From positions 1 through 47,606 of IMG/VR virus record IMGVR_UViG_3300044445_000049: a stretch of 47,606 nt of DNA. One strand, given 5' to 3'. The notes below the pieces were generated by a model. It saw only the letters and a program-made list of their open reading frames with translations, searched no databases and was not told the origin of the DNA. Below are positions 1,307 through 47,055 of the stretch, one piece after another. Made by a program: the position numbers and the translations under genes. Every line of letters starts with the position of its first letter. The stretch's first letter is position 1. Source of the stretch: a virus.

Positions 1307-1336
1307 GAGGAGACCGCCCCGCGTGGGGAGGTTGCC
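1307..1336 (-). promoter_or_regulatory. Class II promoter-like motif (copy 1), directly before int
   Basis: Minus strand: AGGCAAC-CTCCCCACGCGG-GGCGGTCTCCTCTCC-ATG. GTCT lies 7 nt before the ATG and there is no SD. Confidence 0.6.
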
Positions 1337-1342
1337 TAGAGG

Positions 1343-1396
1343 AGTAACGCCCTTAGTTGTCATCTAAGAACTTTGGCGGACGCTAAAGGCGTAAGT
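1343..1396. other. Candidate attP: imperfect dyad in a low-GC patch upstream of int
   Basis: AGTAACGCCCTTAG (1343-1356) versus the reverse complement of CTAAAGGCGTAAGT (1383-1396) matches at 11 of 14 positions. The centre is near 1369/1370. Confidence 0.25.
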
Positions 1397-1429
1397 CAAC
1401 AGACACTCCGTGCCGCGTGAATACGCGGA

Positions 1430-1466
1430 AAGGCCCCCACTCCGTTTCGCACGGGGCGGGGGCCTT
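1430..1466 (-). terminator. Stem-loop terminator after gene 1494-1805
   Basis: AAGGCCCCC...GGGGGCCTT, 9-bp GC stem. The minus-strand tail is TTCC. Confidence 0.55.
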
Positions 1467-1493
1467 CTCTGTTGCCGGGGTGGGGCGGAGGGG

Positions 1494-1805
1494 CTACGGC
1501 TTCGAGGCCCAGCGCTCGAGCCACGCCGCGACCTCGGCGGGTTGCATGACGTCCTGCTCGACCTTGTGCGGGGCGTCGCCGCGCCGGGCGATGATGTCGA
1601 CGAGGTCGTCGCGGAAGACGAGGACGACGGTGCCCGAGTCCGACTCGCCCCACCCGACGTAGATGAGGGTGCGTACCGAGGGCTGTTCGGGGAGCGAGGC
1701 GTCACGCCAGCGCTCACTCTCGAGGAGCGTGCGCAGCCCGGGAACGGTCGGCAGGTAGGTACGGGGGTCGGCGTCCGCGTCGGGGCGGCCGAAGGTGTCA
1801 GTCAT
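1494..1805 (-). CDS. Hypothetical protein (103 aa)
   Basis: Internal ATG at 1805 of track ORF 1494..1904 (MTDTFGRPDADADPRTY..). High GC3, weak SD. Confidence 0.55.
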   Translation of the reverse strand: MTDTFGRPDADADPRTYLPTVPGLRTLLESERWRDASLPEQPSVRTLIYVGWGESDSGTVVLVFRDDLVDIIARRGDAPHKVEQDVMQPAEVAAWLERWASKP

Positions 1806-1867
1806 TGGAGCGGGTCTCATTTCTCGAGTTGGCGTTTCAGAGAGTACAGGCGGCGAGGAGGTCGACG

Positions 1868-2149
1868 TCAGCGTCGACGGTCGCGGGCGTCCTCGTTGGT
1901 CCAAACGCCCTCACGGAAGAGGAGGATTGTGACCACGACGGAGACGCGAGCGTCCCAGACGACGCAGAGGTCGCCGAGGACGTATCGCCCGAGTCCCCGA
2001 TGCGGGTGCGAAGACCCTTTCAGGAGCACTTCTGCTACCTCCCGCTCGCTGACGTGACGCTCCCGCATGACGTTTCGGGCATGGAAGGAGATTCGCGCCT
2101 CGAGGAGGTCTTCCTTCGTAATGCGCGGGTTCGGCTTGGGGTCGGTCAT
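1868..2149 (-). CDS. DUF4258-like putative toxin (93 aa), leaderless
   Basis: MTDPKPNPRITKEDLLEARISFHARNVMRERHVSEREVAEVLLKG resembles the H..R...R.IS..EV signature. The ATG at 2149 lies 7 nt after the TACCGT -10 element. Confidence 0.55.
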   Translation of the reverse strand: MTDPKPNPRITKEDLLEARISFHARNVMRERHVSEREVAEVLLKGSSHPHRGLGRYVLGDLCVVWDARVSVVVTILLFREGVWTNEDARDRRR

Positions 2150-2156
2150 AGCCACC

Positions 2157-2185
2157 ACGGTACTCGCGCAAGAATGTTCGCGCAA
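2157..2185 (-). promoter_or_regulatory. Class I sigma-A-like promoter (copy d)
   Basis: Minus strand: TTGCGC-N17-TACCGT with TGCGCGAG immediately 5' of the -10. Confidence 0.6.
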
Positions 2186-2202
2186 GAACACTCGCGCAAG
2201 GA
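2161..2202. repeat. 3 x 14-bp tandem repeat (nnyTCGCGCAAGrA) overlapping promoter d
   Basis: tactcgcgcaagaa / tgttcgcgcaagaa / cactcgcgcaagga. Confidence 0.8.
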
Positions 2203-2210
2203 GGAACGCG

Positions 2211-2241
2211 AAAGGCCCCCACCTCCGAAGAGGCAGGGGCC
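2211..2241 (-). terminator. Rho-independent terminator
   Basis: Minus strand: GGCCCCTGCCTC-TTCG-GAGGTGGGGGCC followed by TTTCG. Confidence 0.7.
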
Positions 2242-2258
2242 AGGTAGGGGAGCGTCCG

Positions 2259-3800: not shown

Positions 3801-4043
3801 CTACGAGCGTCGGCCGCGGGGACGCCAGGCGGGGTCGTGCTTGCGAGCGAGGAAGGACGCCACGCTCTCGCGAGGCCCGTGGGGCTTGGGGCGCACGGAC
3901 TCGGGCGGGAACTCGCGCTGGTAGTAGCGGCCCGTCGATCGCGTGTGGAAGCCGACTGTTACGGCGTCGGTGTGGCCGTCGATGCTCACGACATAGCCCT
4001 CGCCGAGGGGCGTGAGGACGTGGTGGGACACCGGGACAGTCAC
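3801..4043 (-). CDS. Hypothetical small beta-rich protein (80 aa), coupled to the sigma gene
   Basis: GTG at 4043 overlaps the sigma stop (GTGA). MTVPVSHHVLTPLGEGYVVSIDGHTDAVTVGF.. Confidence 0.6.
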   Translation of the reverse strand: MTVPVSHHVLTPLGEGYVVSIDGHTDAVTVGFHTRSTGRYYQREFPPESVRPKPHGPRESVASFLARKHDPAWRPRGRRS

Positions 4044-4873
4044 TCGGACGCCTCCGGGACGTTGAGGGCCTTGCGCATGGTCGACAGGCCCTCGGCGCGG
4101 ATGCGCTGCACCTTCGAGCGCGAGTATCCGCGGCGGTGGGCAATCTCGGCGTCGGGGATCGGGTCATACTCGGTGAAGCCGTAGGCGTCCCGGATGACGT
4201 CCCCGGTGATGACGTCGACGGCCGCGAAGGCCTTGGCGACGTCGGCACGCTGCTCGACGGTCGAGTAGCCGCGCTCAACCGTGAGTGAAGAGGTGCGGGG
4301 CTCGGAGTCGAAGTTGTTGCCCGCGCCGTGCGGGGCGTATGCGCGGTCGTTCGCCTTCTCGAGCCCTCCGCCGATCAGGTCGTCGAGGCTCTGCGCGTCG
4401 AGGGCTTCCTTGACTGCGCGGAAAGTCTCCCGGGTCATGCCGAGCTCGAGAGCCTTCGCCTCGGCGTCACCGTCGGGGCCCGCCTCGCGCCGCGCCTGGG
4501 TGAAGCGCTGCCGCGTGCGAGCCGGGATGGCGAAGCCGCCGACGAGGTGGTGCTCGTCGGCGACGCGGAGGGCGGCCTTGGGGAGCCGGAATGCCACGCG
4601 CTCGCCCGTCTGGCACTCGTGAACCGCCTCGGCGAACGCGAGGAGAACGTTGGCGCGGGTTTCGAGGGCGTCCACATGGCCGGCGGCTCGCGCGTACTCC
4701 TGCTCGACGAGCGCGCGGAGGCCGTGGGCGTACTGCATGAGGAGCGTCTCGTAGGCGCCGAGGTCGCCATCCTGAGCCGCGCGAATGAGGCGCGTCTCTT
4801 CGGCGTGCTCGAGCTTCTCCCGGGTGACGAGCTTGTCATCGAAGATCGCGCGGAGCGTCGTGTGAGCGGTCAT
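4040..4873 (-). CDS. Sigma-70-family RNA polymerase sigma factor (277 aa; regions 2, 3 and 4)
   Basis: Region 2-like EETRLIRAAQDGDLGAYETLLMQYAHGLRALV. Region 4.2 HTH IAHRRGYSRSKVQRIRAEGLSTMRKAL. SD AAGAGGGA before the ATG at 4873. Confidence 0.8.
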   Translation of the reverse strand: MTAHTTLRAIFDDKLVTREKLEHAEETRLIRAAQDGDLGAYETLLMQYAHGLRALVEQEYARAAGHVDALETRANVLLAFAEAVHECQTGERVAFRLPKAALRVADEHHLVGGFAIPARTRQRFTQARREAGPDGDAEAKALELGMTRETFRAVKEALDAQSLDDLIGGGLEKANDRAYAPHGAGNNFDSEPRTSSLTVERGYSTVEQRADVAKAFAAVDVITGDVIRDAYGFTEYDPIPDAEIAHRRGYSRSKVQRIRAEGLSTMRKALNVPEASE

Positions 4874-4912
4874 GGTGGTCCCTCTTTCGTTGGGTGTTGC
4901 GGGCGTGTTTGA

Positions 4913-4930
4913 GCGCGCGAATATGCGCGC
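4913..4930. promoter_or_regulatory. GCGCGC-GAATAT-GCGCGC stem-loop/palindrome 40 nt upstream of the sigma start
   Basis: Seen directly. A related GCGCGCGAATA is also present near 43705. Confidence 0.3.
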
Positions 4931-5074
4931 GACGTCGCCATGAAGGCGCGACGAATAGCGCTAGGGAGCGGGTGCGGTCGACGACGGCGGGAGGGCGCAA
5001 TGAAGAAGCGCTTGGCGCGTGGACGCGACGGCACCCGCTCTAGCGGGCGTGCGGGGTCAGTCAGGGCGGCAGAG

Positions 5075-5094
5075 CCCGCGCAACGGTGCGCGGG
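5075..5094. promoter_or_regulatory. Perfect 8-bp stem with tetraloop in the sigma upstream region
   Basis: CCCGCGCA-ACGG-TGCGCGGG. Confidence 0.3.
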
Positions 5095-5219
5095 ATGCTC
5101 GGCCCTGGGGATGGGCGAGGTGGGTTCCTCGTGTTAGGGAGGAGGTGCCGAGGACGGGTAGTCCACTAGCAGATACACCCTATCGCGTTTGAACCTTTGC
5201 GCGAGTACCTTCGCGCGTG

Positions 5220-5552
5220 TTACGCCCGCTCGCCCGCCCATTCTTGGAGAGCGGCCTCGAGACGGTCCGCCGCCCCGTCCGCCGACCCTCGCATTTGCTC
5301 GAGGAGGGTCTCGGCCTCGATGACCGCGGCGCGGACCTTGAGCCGTCGCTCGTCGGTCGCGGTGTCGAGGGTGGGGTTGGAGACGAGGCCCGAGGCTCGC
5401 TCGGTCGTGTCGTTGCGCTTCGAGGGAGCCGCGGGCGGGAGCCATTGCACGTCGGAGGCGTGGCCGAGGTTCTCGCCGAGCCGGATGAGGGAGGCACCCG
5501 CGGAGCGGATCAAGTCGCCGTGGTGTGACATGTAGTTGTCTTTCGGGGTCAT
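5220..5552 (-). CDS. Hypothetical protein (110 aa)
   Basis: ATG at 5552 (MTPKDNYMSHHGDLIRSAGASLIRLGE..). Very high GC3. The longer track ORF 5220..6284 overlaps the Pol gene and is rejected. Confidence 0.65.
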   Translation of the reverse strand: MTPKDNYMSHHGDLIRSAGASLIRLGENLGHASDVQWLPPAAPSKRNDTTERASGLVSNPTLDTATDERRLKVRAAVIEAETLLEQMRGSADGAADRLEAALQEWAGERA

Positions 5553-5668: not shown

Positions 5669-7531
5669 TCAGGCCGCGTCGAGGCCCTCGGGGATGCCGT
5701 AGCCGGAGCCCCAGGAGCGGCCGTAGACCTCGGGGTCGCTGACGATCGGGATGGAGTAGAAGGTCGACTCCATGAGTCGGCCGATTTCCCGGATGACGTC
5801 CTCGGCGTCGGCCTTGGGGGCCTGAGCGATGAGTTCGTCGTGCACGGGGAGGAGGAGCGTGTCGCCGAGCCCCGCGTCGAAAATGTCGACGATGGCTTGC
5901 GCGAGGAGGTCGCGGGCCGTCGACTGGACGACGTAGTTGGTCGCGGCGTAAAGCCGGTCCCGGTCGAGGGGGAGGTGCCGCCCGGAGACGGTGACGACCT
6001 CGCGCTTGCCGTACTGCGCCCGGTTCTGCAGCTTGGCGCCGTAGCGCTTGATGCCCGGGAAGGTCGCGTCGTAGGCGCCCATGGCGGGGCGGACGTCGTC
6101 GATGGGCACGCCGGTCTGGCGGGACACCGTGGCCGCGCCTCCGCCGTAGACCTTGCCGAAGCCGATGGCCTTGGCGACCTTTCGTTGCCGCTTCGTGAAG
6201 TCCGGGCCGAACACTCGAGCGGCGGTGAAGTCGTGGAGGTCGGTCCCCGACTTGATCGCCTCCATGAGCGTCTTGTCCTGGCACAGGGCCGCGAGCACGC
6301 GCATTTCGACCTGGGAGTAGTCGGCCGCGATGATGAGGTTGCCGGGGTCCGCGATGAGGGCCCGTCGAATCTGCCAGTCACCCGAGGGGAGCTGCTGTAG
6401 CGGCGGGCGGCTGATCGACATGCGGGCCGTGCGGGCCTGTAGGCCGCCGATGAACGGGTGGAGTCGGTCCGTCGAGTCCTTGAGGTCGAGGAAGGCCCCG
6501 ACGTAGGACTTGCGCCACTTGTCCGCGCGCTTCGACCGGAGGACGGCGTCGGCGAGCGGGTTAGGGGTGCGCGCCTCGATCCGCTGCCATTGGTCGTCGA
6601 GGTCGGCGAGGGGCATGAGGACGCCCTTGTCGACCTTCCAGTTGCCCGCGTCGGTGCGCTCAGTCAGCGCCTCGCCCATGCCGAGGAGGGCCTCGGAGAC
6701 CTGGGCCGTTGAGCCGACCTTCTCAACGCCGTAGCGCCGGGCAACGGCCGCGAACTTCTCGGCCTCGGTCTCGAGGCTGGCGTCGAGCTGCTGGACGTAG
6801 GGGACGTCGATGAGGAAGCCTCGCCGCTCCATGACCATGAGGAGGCCTTGGAGGTGATGCTCGAACTTCGACAGGCCGCCCATGCCGAGTTCCTTGACCG
6901 TCGGCGCGAGTTCATCGAAGAGGCGGGAGCCGAGGATGACGTCGAGGCCGGCGTAGCGCACATAGGTCGGATGGTCGATCGGGATGAAGCGCCAGCCGTT
7001 GTCCTTCGTGCAGAGCTTCCCGTCGTCGTCGCGGATCGTGCGGAAGACGGCGTTGAGTCCCTCGCCCGTGTCCGGGGCGGAGTCGTCGACGTAGATGGCC
7101 GAGAGCGGCTTGAGGCCGAGCCCGGCGCCACCCTCGTCGGGCTGCCGAGGGTCGAGGAGGTGGGCAAAGATGCGGGTATCGAAGGTCCGCGCGTTGAGTT
7201 CCTCGATCGTGACGCCGACGTGCCGGTCGATGACCTTGAGGTCGAACGGGGCGTTGTGCGCCGTGAAGAATCGGGGCTGACGAAGGACCTGGCGGATGAC
7301 GTCGAGGAAGAGGTCGGCACGGAGGACCCATGCCTCGCGGCCGTTGCCGACCTGGAAGAGGCGGAGCTCGAAGCCGGGCGAGTAAATGTCGAGTCCGGTC
7401 GTCTCCGTGTCGATGCAGAGCACCTTGTCGCCCTGGCCGAGGAAGGCCCAGAGTCCGGCGAGTTCGGAGCGGCGCTCGGGCATGAAGATCGAGCACTCAT
7501 CACCCGCGATGTTGTGGGTGTAGTGGATCAC
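5669..7531 (-). CDS. Family A DNA polymerase (Pol I-like) with a 3'-5' exonuclease domain
   Basis: Exo motifs CIDTETTGLD and AHNAPFDL. Pol motif A ADYSQVEMRVLA, motif B RQRKVAKAIGFGKVYGGG, motif C LPVHDELI. Confidence 0.95.
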   Translation of the reverse strand: MIHYTHNIAGDECSIFMPERRSELAGLWAFLGQGDKVLCIDTETTGLDIYSPGFELRLFQVGNGREAWVLRADLFLDVIRQVLRQPRFFTAHNAPFDLKVIDRHVGVTIEELNARTFDTRIFAHLLDPRQPDEGGAGLGLKPLSAIYVDDSAPDTGEGLNAVFRTIRDDDGKLCTKDNGWRFIPIDHPTYVRYAGLDVILGSRLFDELAPTVKELGMGGLSKFEHHLQGLLMVMERRGFLIDVPYVQQLDASLETEAEKFAAVARRYGVEKVGSTAQVSEALLGMGEALTERTDAGNWKVDKGVLMPLADLDDQWQRIEARTPNPLADAVLRSKRADKWRKSYVGAFLDLKDSTDRLHPFIGGLQARTARMSISRPPLQQLPSGDWQIRRALIADPGNLIIAADYSQVEMRVLAALCQDKTLMEAIKSGTDLHDFTAARVFGPDFTKRQRKVAKAIGFGKVYGGGAATVSRQTGVPIDDVRPAMGAYDATFPGIKRYGAKLQNRAQYGKREVVTVSGRHLPLDRDRLYAATNYVVQSTARDLLAQAIVDIFDAGLGDTLLLPVHDELIAQAPKADAEDVIREIGRLMESTFYSIPIVSDPEVYGRSWGSGYGIPEGLDAA

Positions 7532-8137: not shown

Positions 8138-8404
8138 TTAGAGGCCGTGGGTGCGGACGAGGGCGAGGATCGTCTCGACGCTGACGAGGGCGTCGCGGCT
8201 GAGGTCGAACTCCTCGCCGTGGAACCGGACCATGACGTCGCCGTCTTCGTCCGGGCCCGAGACGAACGTGACGACGTCCCCCTCCCGCGGGGCCTCGACG
8301 CCGTGCTCCTGGTCGAGGTAGAAGCGGGCGCCGCCCTGGGAGAAGTAGGGGCGCTCGACGATGAGGAAGCGCTGTGGGCGGTTGGGGGACGTCGCGGTTG
8401 CCAT
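8138..8404 (-). CDS. Hypothetical protein (88 aa)
   Basis: ATG at 8404 after GAAAGG (MATATSPNRPQRFLIVERPYF..). Confidence 0.65.
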   Translation of the reverse strand: MATATSPNRPQRFLIVERPYFSQGGARFYLDQEHGVEAPREGDVVTFVSGPDEDGDVMVRFHGEEFDLSRDALVSVETILALVRTHGL

Positions 8405-8418: not shown

Positions 8419-10917
8419 TCAGATGATGGCGTCGAGGTCGGCGCCGTTGATTTCCGTTGCAGAGGAGACCGCCTGGCCGCCCACGGCTGCCCGCGCAATT
8501 TCTGCGTCTTGGTCGCCCTCCTTCACGGCGTCCGTTCGGCGGGCACGGCGGACGCCTTCGAAGGCCACCCCCGAGGCCGTCTTGACCTTGACGAGCTTTC
8601 GCTCCTCGAGGGCGCCGAAGAAGGTGCGCCGGGTCCAGCGCTCGCGCTGCGGGAGGTTCTCCTCGTCGGCCCACTCGAGGTAGGCCTCGAAGAGGGTTTT
8701 GCCCGAGACGCGACCCGCCTCGCCGTCAGCGACGAAGATGCCGGGCAGGAAGCCCGCGAGGGCGTCGGACGTCTCGCGGTACTCCTTCGTGTGAGCGCTG
8801 ACGGTCTCGGGGTCGCGGAGGCCGTGGGCGTACCACTCGATCGCGCCGGCCACGGCCCAGGCGAAAATGCCCTCGGCTTCGGCGAGGAGCTTGTCGCCGA
8901 GACGGCCGTCTCGCTCGTGCGGCGCGAAGAAGCGTTCCCAGGGGATGAACTTGACGCGGCGCCAGAGTCCGTCATCCTGTCCGCGGAACTCGGGCTTGGC
9001 GTTGGTCGCCAGCATGAGGAGGAAGGTGGGGCGGAACTCGAAGAACTCCTTACGCATGAAGCGCGCGGAGATAAGGTCGCGGCCGGTGACGCGCTTGAGT
9101 ACGGCCTCGGCCATGCGCTTGCCCGCCTCGCCCTCCGAGGCCATGACGAGTCGCGCACCCTTGAGAGCTGCGAGGTCGTTGGGGATGCCACCGGAGGGCC
9201 GCTCCTCAAAAGTCGAGAAGGGCGTAGTGGTGGTCAGCTCCCGGAAGACCTCCGTGAGCGTGTCCGTGAAGACCGACTTGCCGTTAGCTCCGCCGCCCCA
9301 GTGGACCGCGAAGCACTGCTCGGCCGTCGAGCCGGTGATGCCGTACCCGACGAGACGCCGCATGTAGGCGGGGAGGTCGGGGTAGGCGGGGAAGACCTCG
9401 TCGAGGAACGCCTCCCAGCGCGGCGCGGTCGCGCGGGGGTTGTAGTCGAGCTCGACGCGGCGGGTGAGGAGAAGGTTGGGGTCGTGCGGCCGTAGTTCGC
9501 CCGTCTTGAGGTTGACGACGCCGTTGCGGCACGCGAGGAGTTCGGGGTGCTTGTCGAAGTCCTCGAGCGAGGCGGGGACGCCCCGGACGGCTTGCAGCTC
9601 GCGGAGCATGGAGTCGATGCCGCGGGTGGTCTGGACGTGCTGCGAGTAGCGCTGGAACCGCCCGGCGCGCTTCTTGTTGCGCTCGCGCTCCTCCTCGGTC
9701 GCCCCCTCGGTCGCGGCCTTGGACGCCTCGAGGGCCAGCTTCTTGACGATGTCGGCGACCTCTTGCGCGTGCGTGCGCGTGGCCTGTCGGTCGTCCTTAC
9801 GCCAGACGCCGGAGTCCAGGAGGAGGAAGCCGACCTCTTCGGTGTACTTGACGCCGGAGCCGATGCTCTCGACGTAGTCGCGGAGGTAGCGGGCGCCGCC
9901 GAGGTCGGAGAGGGCGTAGACGCGCTCGTCCCAGGCGAGGAGCGAAGCCTCGCGAGAGGCGACGGGGCGGGCATCCGAGATAGCCCGGATGACGTCGCGA
10001 GCGAAGCCGGGGCCGCTCTGGGCGCGCCAGTCGGTCAGGTCGAGGCCGTCGGCCAGGTCGAGCACGCGCACGCGGACACCTCTAGCAACGAGGCCCTCGG
10101 CCAGGGTCGCCGAGAAGCGTCGGCCGGCGGGGTCGCCGTCACCCGCGACGATGGCCTCACGGTCGCCGAGCCATCCGGCCACCTCGTCGACAATCGCGGG
10201 GTTGCCCGCGTGCGAGGCCCCGGCGATGCCGATGGTGTCGTAGCCGAGAGCGGCGCCGGTCAGAGCGTCGCCCGGGCCCTCACAGATGAGCACCTCGGGC
10301 CAGCCGGAGGAGCCGGGGAAGAAGCCCGTCTTGGCCCACGAGCCGCCCTCGGGCGACTTGGGACCGAGCCAGCGGACGGCCGCGTCAGCCTCGAGCGCAC
10401 GGGCCTGGAAGTTGCGAGCGACGCCGTCGGGATCGCGGAACGGGACGACGAGGCGAGGGCCGCCACCGATGTCGTCGACGTAGCCGAGGCCAAGACGCTC
10501 GAGGTCGGCTGTCGTGAGTCCGAAGCGGTCGACGGCGTAGCGCGCGGCTTCGTAGAGGGACTCGGGGACGGACTCGGGGTCATGCGGGCCAGTCAGGGCC
10601 TCGGCGTACCCGTCGAGACGCACGGCAAGTTCCGCGATGGCGGCCGGTGTAGCCGGGAGTGCCACGGATGCCTTCTTCGTCGCCGGGATCGAGTCGTCGA
10701 CACGCATGCGGGCGAGGTCGCGCATGGTCATGCCGACCTTCTCGACGACGGCCGGGGTCTGGCATCCGGCGCGGCACTTGAGGAGGACGTTGCCGGTCGT
10801 GCCGATCGTGACGCGGAGGGAGTTGTGGGAGTCGGCGTGAGCGGGGCACGGGGCGAGGTAGCCGTCGGCGGTCTCCTCGACGCCGTCGAACTTGGAGAGG
10901 AAGTCGGTGAGGGTCAT
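8419..10917 (-). CDS. Bifunctional DNA primase / P4-D5-type helicase (832 aa)
   Basis: N-terminal zinc finger CPAHADSHNSLRV..CRAGC, Toprim region (EGPGDAL, DGDPAG), Walker A GGGANGKS. Confidence 0.9.
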   Translation of the reverse strand: MTLTDFLSKFDGVEETADGYLAPCPAHADSHNSLRVTIGTTGNVLLKCRAGCQTPAVVEKVGMTMRDLARMRVDDSIPATKKASVALPATPAAIAELAVRLDGYAEALTGPHDPESVPESLYEAARYAVDRFGLTTADLERLGLGYVDDIGGGPRLVVPFRDPDGVARNFQARALEADAAVRWLGPKSPEGGSWAKTGFFPGSSGWPEVLICEGPGDALTGAALGYDTIGIAGASHAGNPAIVDEVAGWLGDREAIVAGDGDPAGRRFSATLAEGLVARGVRVRVLDLADGLDLTDWRAQSGPGFARDVIRAISDARPVASREASLLAWDERVYALSDLGGARYLRDYVESIGSGVKYTEEVGFLLLDSGVWRKDDRQATRTHAQEVADIVKKLALEASKAATEGATEEERERNKKRAGRFQRYSQHVQTTRGIDSMLRELQAVRGVPASLEDFDKHPELLACRNGVVNLKTGELRPHDPNLLLTRRVELDYNPRATAPRWEAFLDEVFPAYPDLPAYMRRLVGYGITGSTAEQCFAVHWGGGANGKSVFTDTLTEVFRELTTTTPFSTFEERPSGGIPNDLAALKGARLVMASEGEAGKRMAEAVLKRVTGRDLISARFMRKEFFEFRPTFLLMLATNAKPEFRGQDDGLWRRVKFIPWERFFAPHERDGRLGDKLLAEAEGIFAWAVAGAIEWYAHGLRDPETVSAHTKEYRETSDALAGFLPGIFVADGEAGRVSGKTLFEAYLEWADEENLPQRERWTRRTFFGALEERKLVKVKTASGVAFEGVRRARRTDAVKEGDQDAEIARAAVGGQAVSSATEINGADLDAII
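8462..8491 (-). promoter_or_regulatory. Class II promoter-like motif (copy 2), embedded in the last 25 codons of the primase-helicase gene
   Basis: Minus strand: GGGCAGC-CGTGGGCGGCCA-GGCGGTCTCCTCTGC. Confidence 0.55.
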
Positions 10918-10947
10918 GGGGCTCCAATGGGAGGGACGGAGGACGAA

Positions 10948-10977
10948 GAGGAGACCGCCTGGGCGGCCGAGAGCGCC
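10948..10977 (-). promoter_or_regulatory. Class II promoter-like motif (copy 3), upstream of the primase-helicase gene
   Basis: Minus strand: AGGCGCT-CTCGGCCGCCCA-GGCGGTCTCCTCTTC. The -35 half is weaker than in other copies. Confidence 0.5.
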
Positions 10978-11360
10978 TACGTGCGGAGCTGCTGCTCGAG
11001 GACGAGAAGGTCGCCCTCGGCTTGCTCGAGGCGGAGGAGGACGTCGGCGAACGTCGAGAGCGGCATGACGGCGTAGACGTCGGCGACGCTCTTGCGGGGG
11101 CGTTTGATGAAGGCGACGGGCAGACGATCCGCGCCGACGCGCTTGGCCTGGACTACCGCCCCGTCGACGCCGTCGCGGAGAGCCGTGGCGAGGTCGCGGT
11201 AGTTCTTCGCCTGGCCGACGAAGGGGTCGATGCCGTGGACGTCGCCGACGTCGAGGGCGCCGGTCTGGGCGACCCGGCGGGCGGGGATGCCGCGTTCATT
11301 TAGATAGCGGACGATCGCGCTCTCGTGCGCGGTGCCTTTCCGCTTAGCCGCGCTCGACAC
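10977..11360 (-). CDS. Holliday-junction resolvase-like PD-(D/E)XK nuclease (127 aa)
   Basis: SSAAKRKGTAHESAIVRYLNERG...DVGDVHG...GQAKN. GTG at 11360 after GGAGG. Confidence 0.65.
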   Translation of the reverse strand: MSSAAKRKGTAHESAIVRYLNERGIPARRVAQTGALDVGDVHGIDPFVGQAKNYRDLATALRDGVDGAVVQAKRVGADRLPVAFIKRPRKSVADVYAVMPLSTFADVLLRLEQAEGDLLVLEQQLRT

Positions 11361-13220: not shown

Positions 13221-13278
13221 GTTGTCTGTCTCTTCTCTGCGTTTCGATGCCCCGGGTGAGGGGCGCGATTGGGACACA

Positions 13279-13308
13279 GAGGAGACCGCCTGGGGGTGGC
13301 GGGCTGCC
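13279..13308 (-). promoter_or_regulatory. Class II promoter-like motif (copy 4)
   Basis: Minus strand: GGGCAGC-CCGCCACCCCCA-GGCGGTCTCCTCTGTGTCCCA. Confidence 0.6.
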
Positions 13309-13321
13309 CATAACACACGAA

Positions 13322-16530: not shown

Positions 16531-17871
16531 TCAGTCGAGGAAGGTGGAGAGGATGGCTTCGGCCAGGAGCGGCGGGACCGCGTTGCCGATTTGGAGGAAT
16601 TGGGAGGTCTTGGAGCCCTGGAAGGGGAAGGGCCGGGGGTACGTCTGTAGGGCGGCGGCTTCGGCGGCGGTCATTCGCCGCGCGTCTGTGGGTCGGGCGT
16701 CTCCTCCGCCAGAGGTGGCAGGGCTCGGGCGGTTATGTACGTCCGCGGAGCCCTGGCCGGTGACGGCGTGCGCGGGGTGCCAGACCGACCGCGGGGCGTT
16801 GACCGTGGAGGATGTCCCCGCACCCGTCATGAACCGGTAGCTATTCCCGTGTTCGTCCACGGCGGGCCAGCTATCGGGGTAGGTCTGTAGCGCTGCGGCT
16901 TCCTCGACGGTGGCGCGGTAGGCGCCGGTCCCCTTCCGGTCGGAGTAGCGCTCGTGCGCTTCGGCGCCGAGGCGGCGGACGTCATCGGCGTTGATCCGAT
17001 GCCCTGGCGGCCACTCGGGGAATCGCTGCCACGAGCGCGCCTTCTCGGTGACGGTTTGCGCGGGGTCGGATGCCGGGCGGAGGTCGCGGGCGCGGTAGGC
17101 GGTGCCCTCGACGACGACTTCCTCCCGACCGTCGGAGAGGCGCGGGAAGCCGACGAGGTCGGCGGGCGGCCAGCCCAGGGCCTCGGCCATGGAGACCCAC
17201 TTGAGGACTCCGTCGTCGAGGCGCCTGGCGTCGCGCGGGTAGTAGCGGGAGTGCGTCGGCGTCGGGAGCTTGGCGACGCCTCCGTCGCGGCGAGCGATGA
17301 GGATGGCTCGTCGACGGGTCTGCGGCACGCCGTACTGCTCGGCGTTGAGGATGCCGGTGACGACCGAGTAGCCCATCGCCCGCATGACGTCGGCGTAGGC
17401 CTCCCAGACGGGGAGGACTGACGGCACCTGCTCGAGCGCGACGTAGCGGGGGCGGTCGCGGCGAATGTAGGCGAGCGGCACGAGGACGAGTGCGGTGCGC
17501 GGGTCGAGGCCCTGAGTCGCGCGGTTGAGGAGGAAGGGGTCAGCCCAGACCCGAGAGCGGACGAGGCCGAGCACCTCGTCGAGGGCCTTGCGCCCGGCTC
17601 CCTTGCCAGCGGCCGAGAAGGTCTGGCACGGAGGCGAGGCGATGAGGACGTCGTAGGCGTCCAGGACGGCCAGCGCGGCGGCCGAGAGGAAGGTCTTGTT
17701 GAGGAGGCCGTCCCAGACGTCGCGGAAGATGGTGGAGAAACCTGCGGCGGTGCGCGTTGCGACGGCCTCGTCCATGATTTCGACGCCGTGGTCGGCGATG
17801 CCGAGGCGGTGAGCCGCAACGCCCCAGCCGGAACCGGCGAAGAGGTCGAGGGCGGTGAGGTTCGGGGTCAT
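16531..17871 (-). CDS. DNA (cytosine-5)-methyltransferase (446 aa), leaderless
   Basis: Motif I DLFAGSGWG, motif IV SPPCQTFS, motif VIII QYGVPQTRRR, motif X GNAVPPLLAEAI. The ATG at 17871 lies 3 nt after the class II block. The N-terminal extension in the ORF track is rejected. Confidence 0.9.
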   Translation of the reverse strand: MTPNLTALDLFAGSGWGVAAHRLGIADHGVEIMDEAVATRTAAGFSTIFRDVWDGLLNKTFLSAAALAVLDAYDVLIASPPCQTFSAAGKGAGRKALDEVLGLVRSRVWADPFLLNRATQGLDPRTALVLVPLAYIRRDRPRYVALEQVPSVLPVWEAYADVMRAMGYSVVTGILNAEQYGVPQTRRRAILIARRDGGVAKLPTPTHSRYYPRDARRLDDGVLKWVSMAEALGWPPADLVGFPRLSDGREEVVVEGTAYRARDLRPASDPAQTVTEKARSWQRFPEWPPGHRINADDVRRLGAEAHERYSDRKGTGAYRATVEEAAALQTYPDSWPAVDEHGNSYRFMTGAGTSSTVNAPRSVWHPAHAVTGQGSADVHNRPSPATSGGGDARPTDARRMTAAEAAALQTYPRPFPFQGSKTSQFLQIGNAVPPLLAEAILSTFLD

Positions 17872-17874
17872 GCA

Positions 17875-17904
17875 GAGGAGACCGCCAGGCTGCCCGCGAG
17901 TGCC
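17875..17904 (-). promoter_or_regulatory. Class II promoter-like motif (copy 5)
   Basis: Minus strand: GGGCACT-CGCGGGCAGCCT-GGCGGTCTCCTCTGC-ATG. Confidence 0.6.
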
Positions 17905-17969
17905 CAAAGAAATTTGAGGCGGAGGCTGTCCACGCGATTTGCTCGATGTCAAGCCCTACGCATGAAGTT

Positions 17970-20376: not shown

Positions 20377-20410
20377 GACGGCCTCCTAGTGTGTCGGGAA
20401 ATGGGACACA

Positions 20411-20440
20411 GAGGAGACCGCCTAGGAGGGCAGGGGTGCC
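20411..20440 (-). promoter_or_regulatory. Class II promoter-like motif (copy 6)
   Basis: Minus strand: GGGCACC-CCTGCCCTCCTA-GGCGGTCTCCTCTGTGTCCCA. Confidence 0.6.
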
Positions 20441-20490
20441 CGCCCCGGGGCGGGCGGATCGCCGCGGGGTGGGCCCTGGACGCGCAAGAT

Positions 20491-21956: not shown

Positions 21957-22309
21957 GCCTTCTCGACCTCGAGGTAGAGGCCGTAGAAGTAGTAGCCGTT
22001 GGACTCTTCCCACTCCTGATTGATCGTCAGGGCCGGGCCGGAGCCCGTCAGGAGGAAGACTCGAGCGCTTCGCGCGCCGTCGTATTCCTGGGAGACGGAC
22101 GTGATGACGTGCTCGGAGTCGACGATCGCGCCGAGGGTGGCGTCGCCCCAAGCGCAACAGTCGGATGCCCCGGTGACCTTGATGCGCGTGCCGTTGTCGA
22201 GGGTCAGGGTGTCGCCGTCGACGGAGACCGCCTTGTGGCCGACGACGAGGGGGCGGAGCGTGGAGGCGAGTTCGTCTTGCTCGATGCTCGAGCGGGTGGA
22301 AGTAGTCAT
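21953..22309 (-). CDS. Hypothetical protein (118 aa), leaderless
   Basis: The ATG at 22309 lies 3 nt after the class II block. Confidence 0.65.
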   Translation of the reverse strand: MTTSTRSSIEQDELASTLRPLVVGHKAVSVDGDTLTLDNGTRIKVTGASDCCAWGDATLGAIVDSEHVITSVSQEYDGARSARVFLLTGSGPALTINQEWEESNGYYFYGLYLEVEKA

Positions 22310-22312
22310 GCG

Positions 22313-22342
22313 GAGGAGACCGCCTCAATGCCCGGCGCTGCC
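22313..22342 (-). promoter_or_regulatory. Class II promoter-like motif (copy 7)
   Basis: Minus strand: GGGCAGC-GCCGGGCATTGA-GGCGGTCTCCTCCGC-ATG. Confidence 0.6.
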
Positions 22343-22351
22343 CGGGAACGA

Positions 22352-42010: not shown

Positions 42011-42040
42011 AAGAAGACCGCCTAGCTGCCCACGGGAGGT
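42011..42040 (-). promoter_or_regulatory. Degenerate class II motif (copy 8) upstream of the tRNA cluster
   Basis: Minus strand: GGGCAGCTA-GGCGGTCTTCTTACA. No GGCAnC at the canonical -35 spacing. Confidence 0.3.
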
Positions 42041-42152: not shown

Positions 42153-42971
42153 TCACGAGGCGGGGACGAGCTTGGTCAACGTGCTGCCCTCGCCGATGTA
42201 ATCGCGGATCGAGGCCTCAGTCTCACTTCGGACGTTGCCTCCGGTTGCGGGGTAGGAGTGCCAGAGGCCGTTCTCGCGGACGAAGATGCGAGCACCGATG
42301 CGCCCCGATCGAATCTGGCGGATGGTCGCGGGGCCGGCGTAGAGACCGGTCTCCGTCGGGAGCGGGACGGGCGCGGGCTCGAGGAGCTCGAAGTGGTAGG
42401 AGCTTGCCCCGTACTTCTGCGTGCCTACGCCCTCAGGGGCGATGTGCGTGACGCGGCCCGTGGCGAGTTCCTGCGTCACGACGCCGATGACGAACTCGGC
42501 CTTGAGGTGGGAGTGCGTCTTGCTCGTGAGGCGGACCTTGGCGCCCTTCTTGGCTGTGGCGGGGAAGGCCGTGACCGGGGCGTAGAAGGCGGAGTTGTAG
42601 AGGGCGCGCTCGAGGATGGGGTCGAGGGGCATGGCGATTTCCTTTGCGGATTCGATGGCGAAGGAGGAGAAGTGAGTGTGGAGGGTGTGAATCGCGGCGA
42701 CGCGGGCACGGGCAACCCGCTCGCGGCGTTCCCGGGCGAGCCGGTCCACGCGCGCTCGAGCTGCCCGAATGCGGCGCTGCTCGGCGACGGTGAACTCGAG
42801 GAGCTCACGACGGCCCCAGTCGGGACCGAAGGCGACGATGACGTCCCCGGCGTGCCGCACGGTGCGCGGGGTGTAGCCCCAGTCCTCGCGGAACTCGCGA
42901 CGAGCGCGCGGGTAGGCGGAGGCCAGCGTCTCGCCAGGGTGCTGCTCGATCGTCGTGTGGTCGCGGGTCAC
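42153..42971 (-). CDS. Hypothetical protein (272 aa) carrying the PLPTxxGxY module
   Basis: GTGA-coupled start at 42971. ..PVPLPTETGLYAGPATIRQI.. Confidence 0.7.
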   Translation of the reverse strand: MTRDHTTIEQHPGETLASAYPRARREFREDWGYTPRTVRHAGDVIVAFGPDWGRRELLEFTVAEQRRIRAARARVDRLARERRERVARARVAAIHTLHTHFSSFAIESAKEIAMPLDPILERALYNSAFYAPVTAFPATAKKGAKVRLTSKTHSHLKAEFVIGVVTQELATGRVTHIAPEGVGTQKYGASSYHFELLEPAPVPLPTETGLYAGPATIRQIRSGRIGARIFVRENGLWHSYPATGGNVRSETEASIRDYIGEGSTLTKLVPAS

Positions 42972-43348
42972 GCGGCGTCCTCCCACTCGGTCTCGACCTC
43001 ATCGGGTGCGGCCGGGAGCGCGTCCCAGACGTTCTCGAAGAGGTCGAGAATGTCGGCGTAGGCCACGCCGCGGACGCGGGCGTAGTCGATCGCGTCGGCG
43101 AGCATCGCTCGAGCGCCGTGCTTGCCGAGGCCTTCGATGCTGGCGTCCTCGGGCTCCCAGTCGTACGGCATGCGCCACGAGGCGAGGAGGCGGTCCAGCG
43201 GCTCGGAGGCCATGGAGCCGGGCTTCGGGCGCTTGGGGCCATCGTCGTCGGCTCCGCCGCCGTTACCGACGCCGTCGACGGGAGGGGCAGGGGGAGGCGG
43301 GAGCGTGGGCGTCCCGGTGTTGGAGGGTGCGGGTTGCATCATGGTCAT
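42968..43348 (-). CDS. Hypothetical acidic protein (126 aa), leaderless
   Basis: The ATG at 43348 lies 3 nt after the class II block. Confidence 0.65.
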   Translation of the reverse strand: MTMMQPAPSNTGTPTLPPPPAPPVDGVGNGGGADDDGPKRPKPGSMASEPLDRLLASWRMPYDWEPEDASIEGLGKHGARAMLADAIDYARVRGVAYADILDLFENVWDALPAAPDEVETEWEDAA

Positions 43349-43351
43349 GCA

Positions 43352-43381
43352 GAGGAGACCGCCAGCGGTGGTAGTCCTGCC
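43352..43381 (-). promoter_or_regulatory. Class II promoter-like motif (copy 9)
   Basis: Minus strand: GGGCAGG-ACTACCACCGCT-GGCGGTCTCCTCTGC-ATG. Confidence 0.6.
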
Positions 43382-43393
43382 CAGAGCAAACGA

Positions 43394-45074: not shown

Positions 45075-45184
45075 GGGCGGGGCACCTTTCGGAGGCGGCT
45101 GAGGCCGACGGGGGCGAGGAGGATGAGGACGACGACGGCGAACGTCGCAACGGCGTAGTAGCCGCCGAAGAAGTAGAGGATCAA
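45071..45184 (-). CDS. Possible 37-aa hydrophobic micro-ORF
   Basis: TTGA/GTGA-coupled on both sides. LILYFFGGYYAVATFAVVVLILLAPVGLSRLRKVPRP. Confidence 0.35.
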   Translation of the reverse strand: MILYFFGGYYAVATFAVVVLILLAPVGLSRLRKVPRP

Positions 45185-45537
45185 GGGCGGCCGCCTCCGG
45201 TGCGGACGAGGTCTTCGATACGGTCGAGGGTGTCCGGGTCGACTCCCGAGCGGGCGGCCACTCGGCCGATCTGTGCAAGCGCGTCTCGTGCTTTCCCTCC
45301 ACGCTGGGCGGCCTCGCGGGCGACTTCCTCGGCGCTTTCGACGCGACGGGTCTCAACCCGGAGGGCCTCGGCAAGGCTCTCTATGTCTCCGGCAACTCCC
45401 GGGGAGAGGTTGTACTGCAGGGTGAGTCCTCGGAGGGCCTCGGCAACCTCTGAGAGGCTTTGCGACGGAGTGGCGGCTCCGCCACTCCCGAACGAGTCGC
45501 GGGCAATCTGTTGCAGTCGCAACGGGTGAACGGTCAT
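45181..45537 (-). CDS. Hypothetical protein (118 aa)
   Basis: AGGAGG plus an ATGA overlap with the upstream gene. Confidence 0.6.
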   Translation of the reverse strand: MTVHPLRLQQIARDSFGSGGAATPSQSLSEVAEALRGLTLQYNLSPGVAGDIESLAEALRVETRRVESAEEVAREAAQRGGKARDALAQIGRVAARSGVDPDTLDRIEDLVRTGGGRP

Positions 45538-45725
45538 GCGGCCCTCCTAAGGGCGGTCATCGGGACGGGGCGGGTGTTCTCGTCAAGGGCGCGGTCGAGG
45601 CCGACCTCGCTCGAGCGGGCGAGGACGCGAGACGCCCAGCCAACGAGGGCGGGGTCGTTCTCGCTCAGGTGGGCCAGGAGGACACGGCGGCTCTGCTCGC
45701 GCTCGTGACGGTGGGCGGGGCTCAC
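45534..45725 (-). CDS. Hypothetical protein (63 aa)
   Basis: GTGA-coupled. High GC3. Confidence 0.5.
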   Translation of the reverse strand: MSPAHRHEREQSRRVLLAHLSENDPALVGWASRVLARSSEVGLDRALDENTRPVPMTALRRAA

Positions 45726-45910
45726 TTCTTGGCGGCGCGGACGTACTGACGACGCCACGGTCCGAGGAGGTGACGCTCGCGCCAGCGCGGGTCGGAGAGA
45801 AGGCTCAGCGGGATATCGAGGTAGGCCGTTGAGACGCCGCGACGCCAGGCGACGACAGCGCGGGCTATGCGACGTGCTCGCCGGGCCCGTCGACGGCTCA
45901 GCCCTTCCAT
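45722..45910 (-). CDS. Hypothetical Arg-rich protein (62 aa)
   Basis: ORF-track ORF with moderate GC3. Confidence 0.45.
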   Translation of the reverse strand: MEGLSRRRARRARRIARAVVAWRRGVSTAYLDIPLSLLSDPRWRERHLLGPWRRQYVRAAKK

Positions 45911-46218
45911 GAGAGCGCGTGCCGGAGGCGAGCGATGAGGTTGGGCTTGGCCGCGGGCACCAGCGCCGGAAGCATCCGCTCGGCGTAGGTGAGTTCGCGC
46001 GCCTCGAGCGGGCGAGGGCGGGGCACCTCGCCGCGGGCGATGGCGTCGTGCTTATCGAAGACGGCCGAGCCCGCGAGGAGGCAGTCGTGCGCGTCGTCGA
46101 CGAGGTCGTCATCCTCGAGCGGCGTGATGAAGAAGTAGTGCGCGGCCTGGCTAGCTGCGCGAGCTGCGGTCATGGGGCCGACGTCAGACGTCGTCTTGGG
46201 CTCGAGAACGAGCGTCAT
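45898..46218 (-). CDS. Hypothetical protein (106 aa)
   Basis: ORF-track ORF. No SD. The start lies inside the palindrome at 46217-46232. Confidence 0.55.
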   Translation of the reverse strand: MTLVLEPKTTSDVGPMTAARAASQAAHYFFITPLEDDDLVDDAHDCLLAGSAVFDKHDAIARGEVPRPRPLEARELTYAERMLPALVPAAKPNLIARLRHALSWKG

Positions 46219-46254
46219 TGGATCAATCCAATCGGGGAGGGTTGGGGTCGCGTC

Positions 46255-46283
46255 AGTCTATGTGCGCGAGTATGGGCGCGCAA
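46255..46283 (-). promoter_or_regulatory. Sigma-A-like promoter (copy f): TTGCGC-N17-TAGACT
   Basis: Seen on the minus strand. The TGCGCGAGTA element here is on the opposite (plus) strand. Confidence 0.45.
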
Positions 46284-46311
46284 GACTTTAAGCGCGAGTG
46301 GGGCCAAAGGG

Positions 46312-46344
46312 AGGCCCGGGGAGAAGTGAGTCTCGCCCGGGCCT
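46312..46344 (-). terminator. 9-bp stem-loop after 46361-46822
   Basis: AGGCCCGGG...CCCGGGCCT. Confidence 0.5.
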
Positions 46345-46360
46345 GAGCCTCGCCGAGGGG

Positions 46361-46822
46361 CTACGCGGTGCGTCGAGCGCGACGCGAGCCGGGGGCCGGC
46401 GCGGGGCGGACGAAGTCGGGGACGTCCGTGATGAGGGGCGGCTCGGGGGAGTGAATCTGCTGCGTCGCACGCTGCATATCGGTCTCGCCGAAGCCCCCCT
46501 CGGAGGGCGGCACGGGGGTCTTCGAAGCCGTCTCTGTGAGTTTCGCGGCATCCGGCGTGTCGGCCTCGTCGAACTCGCACCCGAGGAGGGTGGACGCCGC
46601 GAGGATGAGGAAGTCCCGCGTGGCGATGACGCCGTCGGCTCCTCCCTCGACGTCGAGGTAATACTCGAGGAGGTCGGCGGTGGCCTTCGCGTGGGCCTTG
46701 ATGAGGGGCCCCAGGACATAGGAGTCCGGGGACAGGTTGGAGGCGGAACACCCCGTGTCCGCCGCGGTGCGGAGGTGCTGGACGTGGAGGCGGGCTGCGT
46801 GCTCGATCTGATAGTTAGGCAT
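46361..46822 (-). CDS. Hypothetical protein (153 aa)
   Basis: MPNYQIEHAARLHVQHLRTAADTG.. ATGCCTAA overlap with the upstream gene. Confidence 0.65.
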   Translation of the reverse strand: MPNYQIEHAARLHVQHLRTAADTGCSASNLSPDSYVLGPLIKAHAKATADLLEYYLDVEGGADGVIATRDFLILAASTLLGCEFDEADTPDAAKLTETASKTPVPPSEGGFGETDMQRATQQIHSPEPPLITDVPDFVRPAPAPGSRRARRTA

Positions 46823-46994
46823 CGGGTTTCGGTGCGACTTCCGGCTTGCGTGGCTGACGGGACGCTCGAGCGCCCGTCGACGGCGTGGCGAGTGCGACGG
46901 CGATGGCCTCGAGGAGGAGGTTCGTGCGTGATGGGGAAGGGACCGGCTGCGCGCGAGCGCTCTCGATCAGGTCGGACGGGGTCGGGTGTGCCAT
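46815..46994 (-). CDS. Hypothetical protein (59 aa), first gene after module B
   Basis: ATG at 46994 after GAGAGG. MAHPTPSDLIESARAQPVPSPSRTNLLLEAIAVALA.. Below the ORF-track cut-off. Confidence 0.5.
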   Translation of the reverse strand: MAHPTPSDLIESARAQPVPSPSRTNLLLEAIAVALATPSTGARASRQPRKPEVAPKPDA

Positions 46995-47025
46995 CGGCTA
47001 CCTCTCGAAGCTGTTAGGGGTCGAG

Positions 47026-47055
47026 AAGGAGACCGCCTCGGCGGGCCGGGTTGCC
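47026..47055 (-). promoter_or_regulatory. Class II promoter-like motif (copy 10)
   Basis: Minus strand: GGGCAAC-CCGGCCCGCCGA-GGCGGTCTCCTTCTC. Confidence 0.55.

Follow-up and report, generated by a model that had tools for sequence, protein, structure and literature searches.

The DNA analysed here, referred to throughout as the window, is the IMG/VR virus record IMGVR_UViG_3300044445_000049 (positions 1 to 47,606; 47,606 nt), from a phage whose host group is Microbacterium. On its coding strand it carries nine bipartite sites, termed class II sites, each consisting of a -35-like G(G/A)GCAG hexamer, exactly 13 variable bases, an invariant GGC and then a pyrimidine-rich block. These sites are very probably promoters of some kind, and we put the probability that they are read by a sigma factor encoded by the phage itself (4040-4873) at roughly 0.7. 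In the proposed mechanism, host RNA polymerase carrying the phage sigma would read all nine. Sigma region 4 would contact G(G/A)GCAG at about -34 to -29, regions 3 and 2 would contact the invariant GGC (-15 to -13) and the pyrimidine-rich hexamer GGTCTC (-12 to -7), and transcription would begin at an invariant purine 15 nt after GGC. The result would be a cascade: the phage sigma, itself expressed through host sigma-A, would switch on the genes for replication, nucleotide metabolism and recombination, the methylase gene and the integrase/recombination directionality factor (RDF) genes. A preliminary description of the window, made from its letters, had proposed a two-element, phage-specific promoter regulon tied to the phage sigma, and this is the interpretation favoured by every computational test run.

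Nine bipartite sites and their predicted start points

With at most one mismatch, the pattern GGCA-N14-GGCGGTCTCCT was found nine times in the window, all on the minus strand, against 0.02 expected, and no shuffled sequence reached nine. The 12-mer GGCGGTCTCCTC gave 12 matches at the same tolerance, against 1.57 expected. The consensus of the nine sites is (A/G)GGCA(N)-N13-GGCGGTCTCCTC(T)NN, and their -35 hexamers start at 1337, 8492, 10978, 13309, 17905, 20441, 22343, 43382 and 47056. Every gene of the window lies on the minus strand, as judged by homology to the annotation of Microbacterium phage phiMiGM15 and by codon-usage scoring, and all nine sites share that strand, head gene blocks and are co-oriented with transcription units. 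The spacer between hexamer and GGC is 13 nt in 9/9, with unrelated sequences; among 84 sites collected from 15 genomes it is mostly 13 nt and always 12-14 nt, and its sequence differs even between orthologous sites. Ten copies had been listed in the preliminary description, with invariant spacing and unrelated spacers, and shuffled controls had been named there as a check. Nine of them are borne out on all these points, at the coordinates it gave, whereas the tenth (42040) has a different layout and is treated separately below.

Two additional copies of the 12-mer were rejected as sites because the upstream half is missing: an exact copy on the plus strand at 10867-10878, antisense within the primase gene, and a one-mismatch copy at 28687, in coding sequence. 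A scan for the sigma-70 consensus gave no match at the nine sites. Terminator-type hairpins stand directly before three sites (22385-22358, 43415-43400 and 13331-13319), which leaves no space there for another promoter; the number of terminators returned by the scan is not above that in shuffled sequences, though single hairpins are still informative. A second GRGCA box, 10 nt 3′ of the first, is kept at orthologous sites (methylase, deoxynucleoside monophosphate (dNMP) kinase operon and polymerase operon). A sigma-54-like reading of these double GGGCA boxes was rejected: they miss the required spacing by one, the phage sigma belongs to the sigma-70 type, and actinobacteria are not known to have sigma-54.

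A pyrimidine-purine step is invariant in the window 15 nt after GGC, exactly where the preliminary description had placed the start (7 nt after GTCT). At four sites (integrase, C5-methylase, DUF7448 and orf126) the ATG of a long open reading frame (ORF) falls on this purine, exactly 3 nt after CTCCTC, the bases that precede it, and has no ribosome-binding site, which implies leaderless mRNAs for the integrase, C5-methylase, DUF7448/dNMP kinase and orf126. The annotators of phiMiGM15 picked the corresponding ATGs, and the N-termini of integrase and methylase confirm them. The other five sites are followed by a leader of 27-55 nt with a ribosome-binding site. Across the 84 sites, 20 have a start codon (19 ATG, 1 GTG) opening an ORF of at least 50 codons 14-16 nt after GGC, compared with 2.9% of random positions. 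When the window copy at 10978 is added, giving 85 sites, one fixed position per genome is a purine in 84/85 and the base before it a pyrimidine in 83/85, while neighbouring positions vary. This purine lies 15 nt from GGC in the window, phiMiGM15, IAmGroot and L007, and 16 nt from it in the other genomes tabulated; 15 start codons, at offsets 15 and 16, coincide with the invariant purine of their own genome. We infer that transcription starts at this purine. Taking it as +1 places GGC at -15 to -13 (the extended -10 position), GGTCTC at -12 to -7 and GGGCAG at -34 to -29, with 27-29 nt from the end of the -35 hexamer to +1 against 29 nt in a canonical sigma-70 promoter; so numbered, the geometry is that of a sigma-70-family promoter.

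Leaderless promoters of the host sigma-A type also occur on the minus strand of the window, as TTGCGC-N17-TA(G/T/C)nnT-N6/7-ATG at 44035-43998, 43695-43658 and 2185-2147, and again at 21185. These copies share TGCGCGAG just 5′ of the -10 and their ATG heads an ORF. Four near-identical copies are present in IAmGroot and at least eight in Zeta1847, where the TTG of the -35 box seems to have been taken as the annotated start. For these phages, leaderless expression is thus nothing unusual. The integrase ATG lies 6 nt after a TACTAT hexamer in IAmGroot and 6 nt after GGTCTC in the window.

The targets of the nine sites, all read on the minus strand, are as follows. The integrase site P-int (1303..1337) has the form AGGCAA-N13-GGCGGTCTCCTCTCC, its predicted +1 being the A of the integrase ATG (1303), and has an orthologue in phiMiGM15 and in a Microbacterium testaceum prophage; the integrase N-terminus, MTDPKPLRAVLYVRLS, fits a serine recombinase. 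The site at 8458..8492 (predicted +1 A 8458) falls in the last 75 nt of the primase/helicase ORF and would feed orf 8138-8404, orf 7790-8128 and DNA polymerase I (5669-7531); its second GGGC box, 10 nt after the first, is kept in orthologous sites. Upstream of the primase/helicase itself (ATG 10917), the site at 10944..10978 has a degenerate -35, AGGCGC, a predicted +1 at G 10944 and a 27-nt leader with a GGAG ribosome-binding site. The Gp3-like RDF operon (12519-13220) is preceded by 13275..13309 (predicted +1 G 13275), with a terminator-like hairpin just 5′. The C5 cytosine methyltransferase site, 17871..17905, has two GGGCA boxes 10 nt apart and a predicted +1 on the A of ATG 17871, from which the FxGxG motif of the enzyme is at most 15 residues away. 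The exonuclease operon follows 20407..20441 (predicted +1 G 20407). Predicted starts at the A of ATG 22309 and ATG 43348 belong to the sites 22309..22343, which serves DUF7448 (21953-22309) and the dNMP kinase, and 43348..43382, which serves orf126 (42968-43348). Finally, 47022..47056, with the block variant GGCGGTCTCCTT and a predicted +1 at G 47022, heads the operon beginning at ATG 46994. The nine sites are therefore not all strictly intergenic, the exceptions being the 8492 copy, inside the 3′ end of the primase/helicase ORF (stop 8419), and the 10978 copy, whose -35 overlaps the stop codon of the upstream gene.

The phage sigma factor and the distribution of the sites

The 277-aa product of 4040..4873 (minus strand), the presumed reader of the class II sites, is, judged by profile and fold, a sigma-70-family factor with regions 2, 3 and 4 and is group 3-like, so the preliminary description was right to see a phage sigma gene here. 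Taken alone, the window protein has a sole match, to PHROG 351 ('RNA polymerase sigma factor', E = 2e-6). Pfam gave no match at E < 0.01, Sigma70_r4 remaining below the cut-off at E = 0.026, and phmmer against the PDB gave no useful match. The family is more informative. A profile built from 27 of the 33 homologues found has full-length matches in the PDB (E ~1e-9 to 1e-4) to 1rp3, 6pfv, 1l0o, mycobacterial SigA and RpoS, the best being FliA (1rp3) and a 278-residue sigma factor (6pfv), at E ~1e-9, and a 243-residue sigma factor (1l0o), at 8e-9. Among the 27 members, 26 match Sigma70_r4 and 5 match Sigma70_r2 (best E = 5e-8) in Pfam, and 18 match TIGR02937 in NCBIfam (best E = 2e-17). Region 2 is present, with a conserved N-terminal EExxLIxxAQAGDxxAYxxLLxxYxxxLR and a profile that aligns from region 2 of FliA, SigA and RpoS onwards, as is the helix-turn-helix of region 4, where a conserved YGFxEYxPxPDAEIAxRxGxSRxKVQRxR aligns to region 4.2. 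The AlphaFold2 model (mean predicted confidence, pLDDT, 83.7) has three helical domains, with the region 2 helices at residues 23-107 and helices at 118-179 between regions 2 and 4. All of the top 50 Foldseek matches in the PDB are sigma factors (probability 1.00, 258-324 aligned columns), led by RpoS, sigma-32, SigB and sigma-28; TM-scores are only ~0.4, the relative placement of the domains being different.

An affinity with group 4, or extracytoplasmic function (ECF), sigma factors had been suggested in the preliminary description and does not hold. ECF sigmas consist of regions 2 and 4 only and are ~180-200 aa long, whereas this protein has 277 aa, region 3 helices at 118-179 and a full-length alignment to groups 1-3, including sigma-28, SigF, RpoS and SigA. 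ECF structures align only to residues ~18-100, and ECF models match weakly and in few family members. With tblastn, 116 phage records proved to carry a homologue, 74 from Arthrobacter, 32 from Microbacterium and 10 from Curtobacterium; in most the annotation reads 'DNA binding protein', in a few 'RNA polymerase sigma factor'.

No class II site lies 5′ of the sigma gene. The 347-nt gap there (4874-5220, minus strand) is untranslated and is probably the control point of sigma expression. It contains a -10-like hexamer, TAGGGT, at 5182-5177, to which TA(G)NNT hexamers correspond in five relatives, and also a box, CTATTCGTCGCGCC (around 4958-4945), common in partly imperfect form to phiMiGM15, L007, L008 and L009. 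Alignment of the regions 5′ of the sigma gene revealed no clean promoter, just the TA(G)NNT hexamer and this box. From the host-type hexamer, and the absence of a class II site at this position, we infer that host sigma-A would act before the phage sigma. No phage RNA polymerase gene was found in the phiMiGM15 annotation. An 80-aa ORF (3801-4043, minus strand), for which no family match was found, overlaps the sigma stop (ATGA overlap), likewise in phiMiGM15 and IAmGroot; it is conceivably an anti-sigma factor or partner.

The window has an exact 127-nt direct repeat at its ends (1-127 and 47480-47606) and is therefore a circular contig of ~47,479 bp (47.5 kb); the integrase gene crosses the window start and resumes at the window end. 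It is 85% identical to phiMiGM15 across 64% of its first 25 kb, and cluster EH Microbacterium phages and cluster AZ Arthrobacter phages are more remote kin. Of 22 distinct genomes or contigs of Microbacterium, Arthrobacter and Curtobacterium phages that encode the sigma, 21 carry the bipartite architecture, always confined to the coding strand and with 3-12 sites per related genome or locus; the preliminary description had named related phages as a place to check for the motif. No such sites were detected in Dismas or in two short contigs that are nearly identical to each other (L017 and L018), and the architecture is missing from two phages that lack this sigma (Speedwell and ReT1v-1), from the opposite strand and from shuffled sequences. 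In a de novo statistic, the most frequent 9-mer 17-21 nt after GRGCA recurs 3-8 times on the coding strand of motif-bearing genomes, and at most 3 times on the other strand, in shuffles and in Dismas, Speedwell and ReT1v-1.

The -10 block is specific to the lineage and nearly invariant within one phage. It is GGCGGTCTCCTC in phiMiGM15, the M. testaceum prophage and Mabodamaca, GGCGGTCTTCTC in IAmGroot, GGCGCTCTCCTC in L007, GGCGGTATCTCC in L008, GGCGGCCT(T/C) in L009 and Cen1621, GGCTCTCT in Powerpuff, Tweety19 and L014, GGCCGACTCCTC in Donkey, L012 and L013, GGCCACCTCTCT in L011, GGCCCCCTTCTC in L016 and GGCGCTCTCT in L019. Zeta1847 and Adumb2043 have GAGCAG-N13-GGCGTCCTCTC and GAGCAG-N13-GGCCCTCTCCTC respectively, and L020, with one site in L015, has GAACAC-N13-GGCGCATAGG. 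The spacer is 13 nt across relatives, occasionally 12-14, and between close relatives spacers have diverged with both boxes unchanged. Orthologous sites stand 5′ of the dNMP kinase, exonuclease, directionality factor and primase genes and of the genes after the integrase. L020 and L015, which have the GAACAC -35, are also the motif-bearing genomes whose sigma-4.2 helix (SRLKIQR and SRTKTLR) departs from the shared [ST]Rxx[VT]QR pattern. An apparent tracking of GGGCA versus GAGCA by R versus L in HRRG/HRLG was dropped, being outside the recognition helix, having an exception in L019 and following phylogeny.

GGGCA-N14-GGCGGTCTCCTCTG was searched in 596 Gb of sequence comprising one genome per species (185,579 bacterial species), giving 12 matches. 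Five are on a single contig, NZ_BJML01000011.1 of M. testaceum NBRC 12675, within a prophage whose primase, polymerase and sigma are 94%, 97% and 78% identical to those of the window, and one adjoins the integrase of a Microbacterium sp. BWT-B31 prophage. The remaining six occur singly, with no phage genes, and are roughly as many as chance alone would give. Frequency in other genomes had been named as a check on the motif, and exact copies cluster only in Microbacterium prophages. The same promoter set is carried by the integrated prophages L021, L023, L026 and L031 (NZ_BJML01000011.1) and L022 (Microbacterium sp. BWT-B31); phages of this type therefore do lysogenise, cluster EH-like Microbacterium phages having previously only been presumed temperate.

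Competing explanations of the sites

Several observations weigh against reading by the phage sigma. A C/T-rich, G+C-rich -10 such as this is unusual for sigma-70-family promoters, and the second GRGCA box, at about -24 in a third of sites, is not explained by it. The co-occurrence of sites and sigma is confounded by shared ancestry of whole genomes, and Dismas (cluster EB) has a distant sigma homologue yet no detectable site. The window protein itself falls under the curated Pfam and NCBIfam cut-offs, so that it is the profile of the family and the fold prediction that identify it. The literature searched yielded no data on transcription starts, RNA or binding for these phages. A conserved hairpin, described below, indicates that the block is transcribed in some functional RNA, presumably by upstream read-through. 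Lastly, when phages of the same host are compared, their blocks track phage lineage, but the differences among their -10 hexamers are modest, and a conserved alternative sigma of the host may therefore be involved.

This last possibility, that the sites are promoters read by an alternative sigma of the host (conserved in Microbacteriaceae and Micrococcaceae) or by host polymerase aided by some other factor from the phage, is one we regard as rather unlikely. The phage sigma-like protein would then do another job, for example at the late genes, where a variant site could be its true target, or in immunity, as suggested for its Lizalica homologue gp43, which a preprint names as a candidate immunity repressor among others, mentioning no targets and no promoters (10.1101/2025.05.26.655371). 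The likeness of -35 and -10 cores in phages of three host genera would fit, as would the -35 of L020 (TGAACAC), which resembles ECF-type -35 elements. The L020/L015 change in the -35, however, coincides with a change in the recognition helix of the phage sigma, and the architecture is absent from the two phages that lack the sigma. Moreover, the extended motif occurs in host genomes only within prophages, and a -10 block that is lineage-specific and near-invariant per phage is what a dedicated factor would leave.

It is also possible, though distinctly improbable, that the block is mainly an RNA element, with transcription starting 5′ of GGC and an anti-Shine-Dalgarno-like tract that masks the ribosome-binding site or marks messages for a phage factor. 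At leadered sites the block pairs with the downstream ribosome-binding region in 35 of 43 cases, and leaders that have their native block fold at -15.6 kcal/mol on average, compared with -12.5 when the block is shuffled (p = 5e-7) and -7.3 when it is left out. Blocks taken from other phages, however, give -14.4 kcal/mol, the native block being only marginally better (p = 0.045; 23/40 sites), and most of the pairing is therefore generic CUCC:GGAG complementarity. For the exonuclease-operon leader (20422-20377, minus strand), a single-sequence fold gives a hairpin of ~17 base pairs (-27 kcal/mol) in which the ribosome-binding site is paired to the -10 block and +1 region. At least six phages retain this hairpin through compensatory changes, their inner stems being different (TGTGTC/GACACA, AAGCGTC/GACGTTT, TTTGCGTC/GACGCAAG, TTACTGTC/GACAGTAA and others). 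RNAalifold did not recover this hairpin from a MAFFT alignment of exonuclease leaders, which was not structure-aware. A purely RNA role would leave unexplained the strict 13-nt spacing, the pyrimidine-purine step and the ATGs without a ribosome-binding site; no conserved promoter element was found 5′ of G(G/A)GCAG, some sites abut terminators, and the blocks have no match in Rfam. A combined role, which we consider unlikely, is that the -10/discriminator block does double duty as a promoter element in DNA and as an RNA lock on the ribosome-binding site in read-through transcripts. The CUCCUC tract and its flanks in read-through RNA would pair with the downstream ribosome-binding site, and only messages begun at the phage-sigma promoter, which lack the 5′ arm, would be translatable. 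If so, translation would be tied to the promoter of origin, and the lytic genes of these 'repressor-less' temperate phages would have a second lock beside control of the sigma gene.

The preliminary description had itself raised two alternatives, a stoperator-like binding site for a repressor or other regulator and a start-associated sequence of the kind known from cluster K and EF phages; either is highly improbable. The sites are certainly multi-copy, asymmetric and strand-specific, as both of these classes are, some stand directly before start codons, and the phages belong to a temperate group without an identified repressor, Powerpuff showing lysogeny and immunity with none identifiable (PMC8758107). 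Cluster A stoperators, however, are contiguous and spread through transcribed regions, whereas the present sites are bipartite with a variable spacer and head gene blocks. Start-associated sequences of clusters K and EF contain the ribosome-binding site a few bases before start codons (PMC7302621). Here the block is pyrimidine-rich, has no ribosome-binding site and lies 0 to 55 nt from start codons, which either fall on the predicted +1 or follow 27-55 nt 3′ behind a separate ribosome-binding site.

A better operator candidate is a separate palindromic cassette of ~110 nt, present twice on the minus strand (20488-20592 and 47063-47168; a local alignment matches the copies at 72 positions). In each copy, two palindromes, (G)AATGACG-N6-7-CGTCATT(C), stand on either side of CTTAGT...GCAAGTAATAG, and the two copies lie just 5′ of the class II sites of the exonuclease operon and of the first operon after the integrase. 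Similar palindrome pairs occur at both corresponding loci in IAmGroot and Donkey. The cassette could well be the missing immunity operator or an early control region.

Late-operon element, known systems and significance

The structural and lysis block (about 23-41 kb) contains no standard class II site. The tenth copy of the preliminary description corresponds to a variant element, GGGCAG-CTA-GGCGGTCTTC (42013..42031, minus strand), at the head of the tRNA/HNH/terminase (late) operon. Here GGGCAG is just 3 nt from GGCGGTCTT, and A/T-rich sequence follows. Layout and genomic position are kept in phiMiGM15, IAmGroot, Zeta1847, Cen1621 and Mabodamaca, and in several relatives the element is preceded by CGTGTAAACG; it is possibly a late promoter dependent on an extra factor. 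A stem-loop ~30 nt 3′ of it, just before the tRNAs (41982-41948, minus strand; CGACCGGGCGCGC-(loop with TAC..GA)-GCGGCCCGGC), whose stem sequence is kept in phiMiGM15, IAmGroot and Zeta1847, might act in RNA processing or antitermination, or as a site in DNA.

The asymmetric 10-mer CGTTTACACG / CGTGTAAACG, absent from the window, is over-represented in Adumb2043 (L003; 10 copies) and IAmGroot (L002; 9 copies), and also in L004 and L013. In Adumb2043 it is often found just before ribosome-binding sites at gene ends, in IAmGroot within the spacer of sigma-A-type promoters, and in several phages just 5′ of the late variant, a distribution that is stoperator-like. Zeta1847 (L004) has dense direct and inverted CGTCCGCC / GGCGGACG repeats in a 430-nt gap 3′ of its integrase (20525-20956); the array is iteron-like and could be an origin or a regulator-binding array. 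Rfam found three tRNAs only in the window. A 95-nt tRNA-Arg(tcg) called by ARAGORN at 33584-33678 (+), on the non-coding strand within the structural gene block, is without confirmation from Rfam and is probably a false positive.

Phage sigma factors with promoter classes of their own are long known, among them gp28 of Bacillus phage SPO1 (middle promoters), gp36 of coliphage phiEco32 and gp55 of T4. The present system is like these in pairing a sigma-70-family gene with a multi-copy, phage-specific consensus that is unlike that of the host and stands before gene blocks, and in having the sigma gene outside its own regulon. It differs in belonging to a temperate actinobacteriophage, in its consensus (G(G/A)GCAG-N13-GGC and a pyrimidine-rich -10), in having the integrase and RDF within the regulon, and in a share of predicted leaderless promoters that reaches about a quarter to half in some genomes. 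Moreover, phiEco32 gp36 is ECF-like and T4 gp55 needs no -35, whereas the protein here has regions 2, 3 and 4. Group 3 sigmas (sigma-28/FliA, SigF/SigB, RpoS-like) share with it a length of ~260-280 aa, full-length alignment and bipartite promoters of fixed spacing; identity to any solved sigma, however, is only 13-19%, and the consensus is not known to match any of theirs, e.g. TAAA-N15-GCCGATAA or GTTT-N12-14-GGGTAT. ECF promoters, with the consensus GGAAC-N16-17-CGT(C), are similar in having two G/C-rich boxes, with ~16 nt here from GGCAnC to GTCT, and a start ~7 nt after the -10, and the -35 of L020 is of the GAAC type; the resemblance does not extend to the protein, which has a region-3 domain and aligns with groups 1-3 along its whole length.

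Within Microbacterium phages, clusters EC and EI encode a sigma gene and have repeated asymmetric intergenic motifs of 18-30 bp (PMC7302621). The likeness extends to 5-12 like-oriented copies in short intergenic gaps; those clusters and their motif sequence (TAGaCTATaGGTgTaAgC) are different. The same survey of Microbacterium phages describes repeated motifs in clusters EC, EF, EG and EI and none for EH or Zeta1847 (PMC7302621). No phage paper containing the motif strings, and nothing relevant on phiC31 early promoters, was found in the literature searched, and the promoter class appears to be undescribed there, the principle of a phage sigma with cognate promoters being an old one.

Phages of the cluster AZ/EH type, which infect Arthrobacter, Microbacterium and Curtobacterium, are temperate, and their lysogens are immune, with no repressor or circuit identified (PMC8758107; PMC7302621). 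For this group, with more than 110 sequenced genomes, the probable promoter set of the phage sigma is now defined, and in the window it comprises nine sites including those of the integrase and directionality factor. The resulting wiring diagram would place most non-structural genes under one phage sigma, and control of lysogeny would reduce to how the sigma gene or protein stays off. The sites also supply an annotation rule for start codons, namely an ATG on the invariant purine. Orthogonal pairs of sigma and promoter, with their lineage-specific -10 blocks, may in addition serve as genetic tools in high-G+C actinobacteria.

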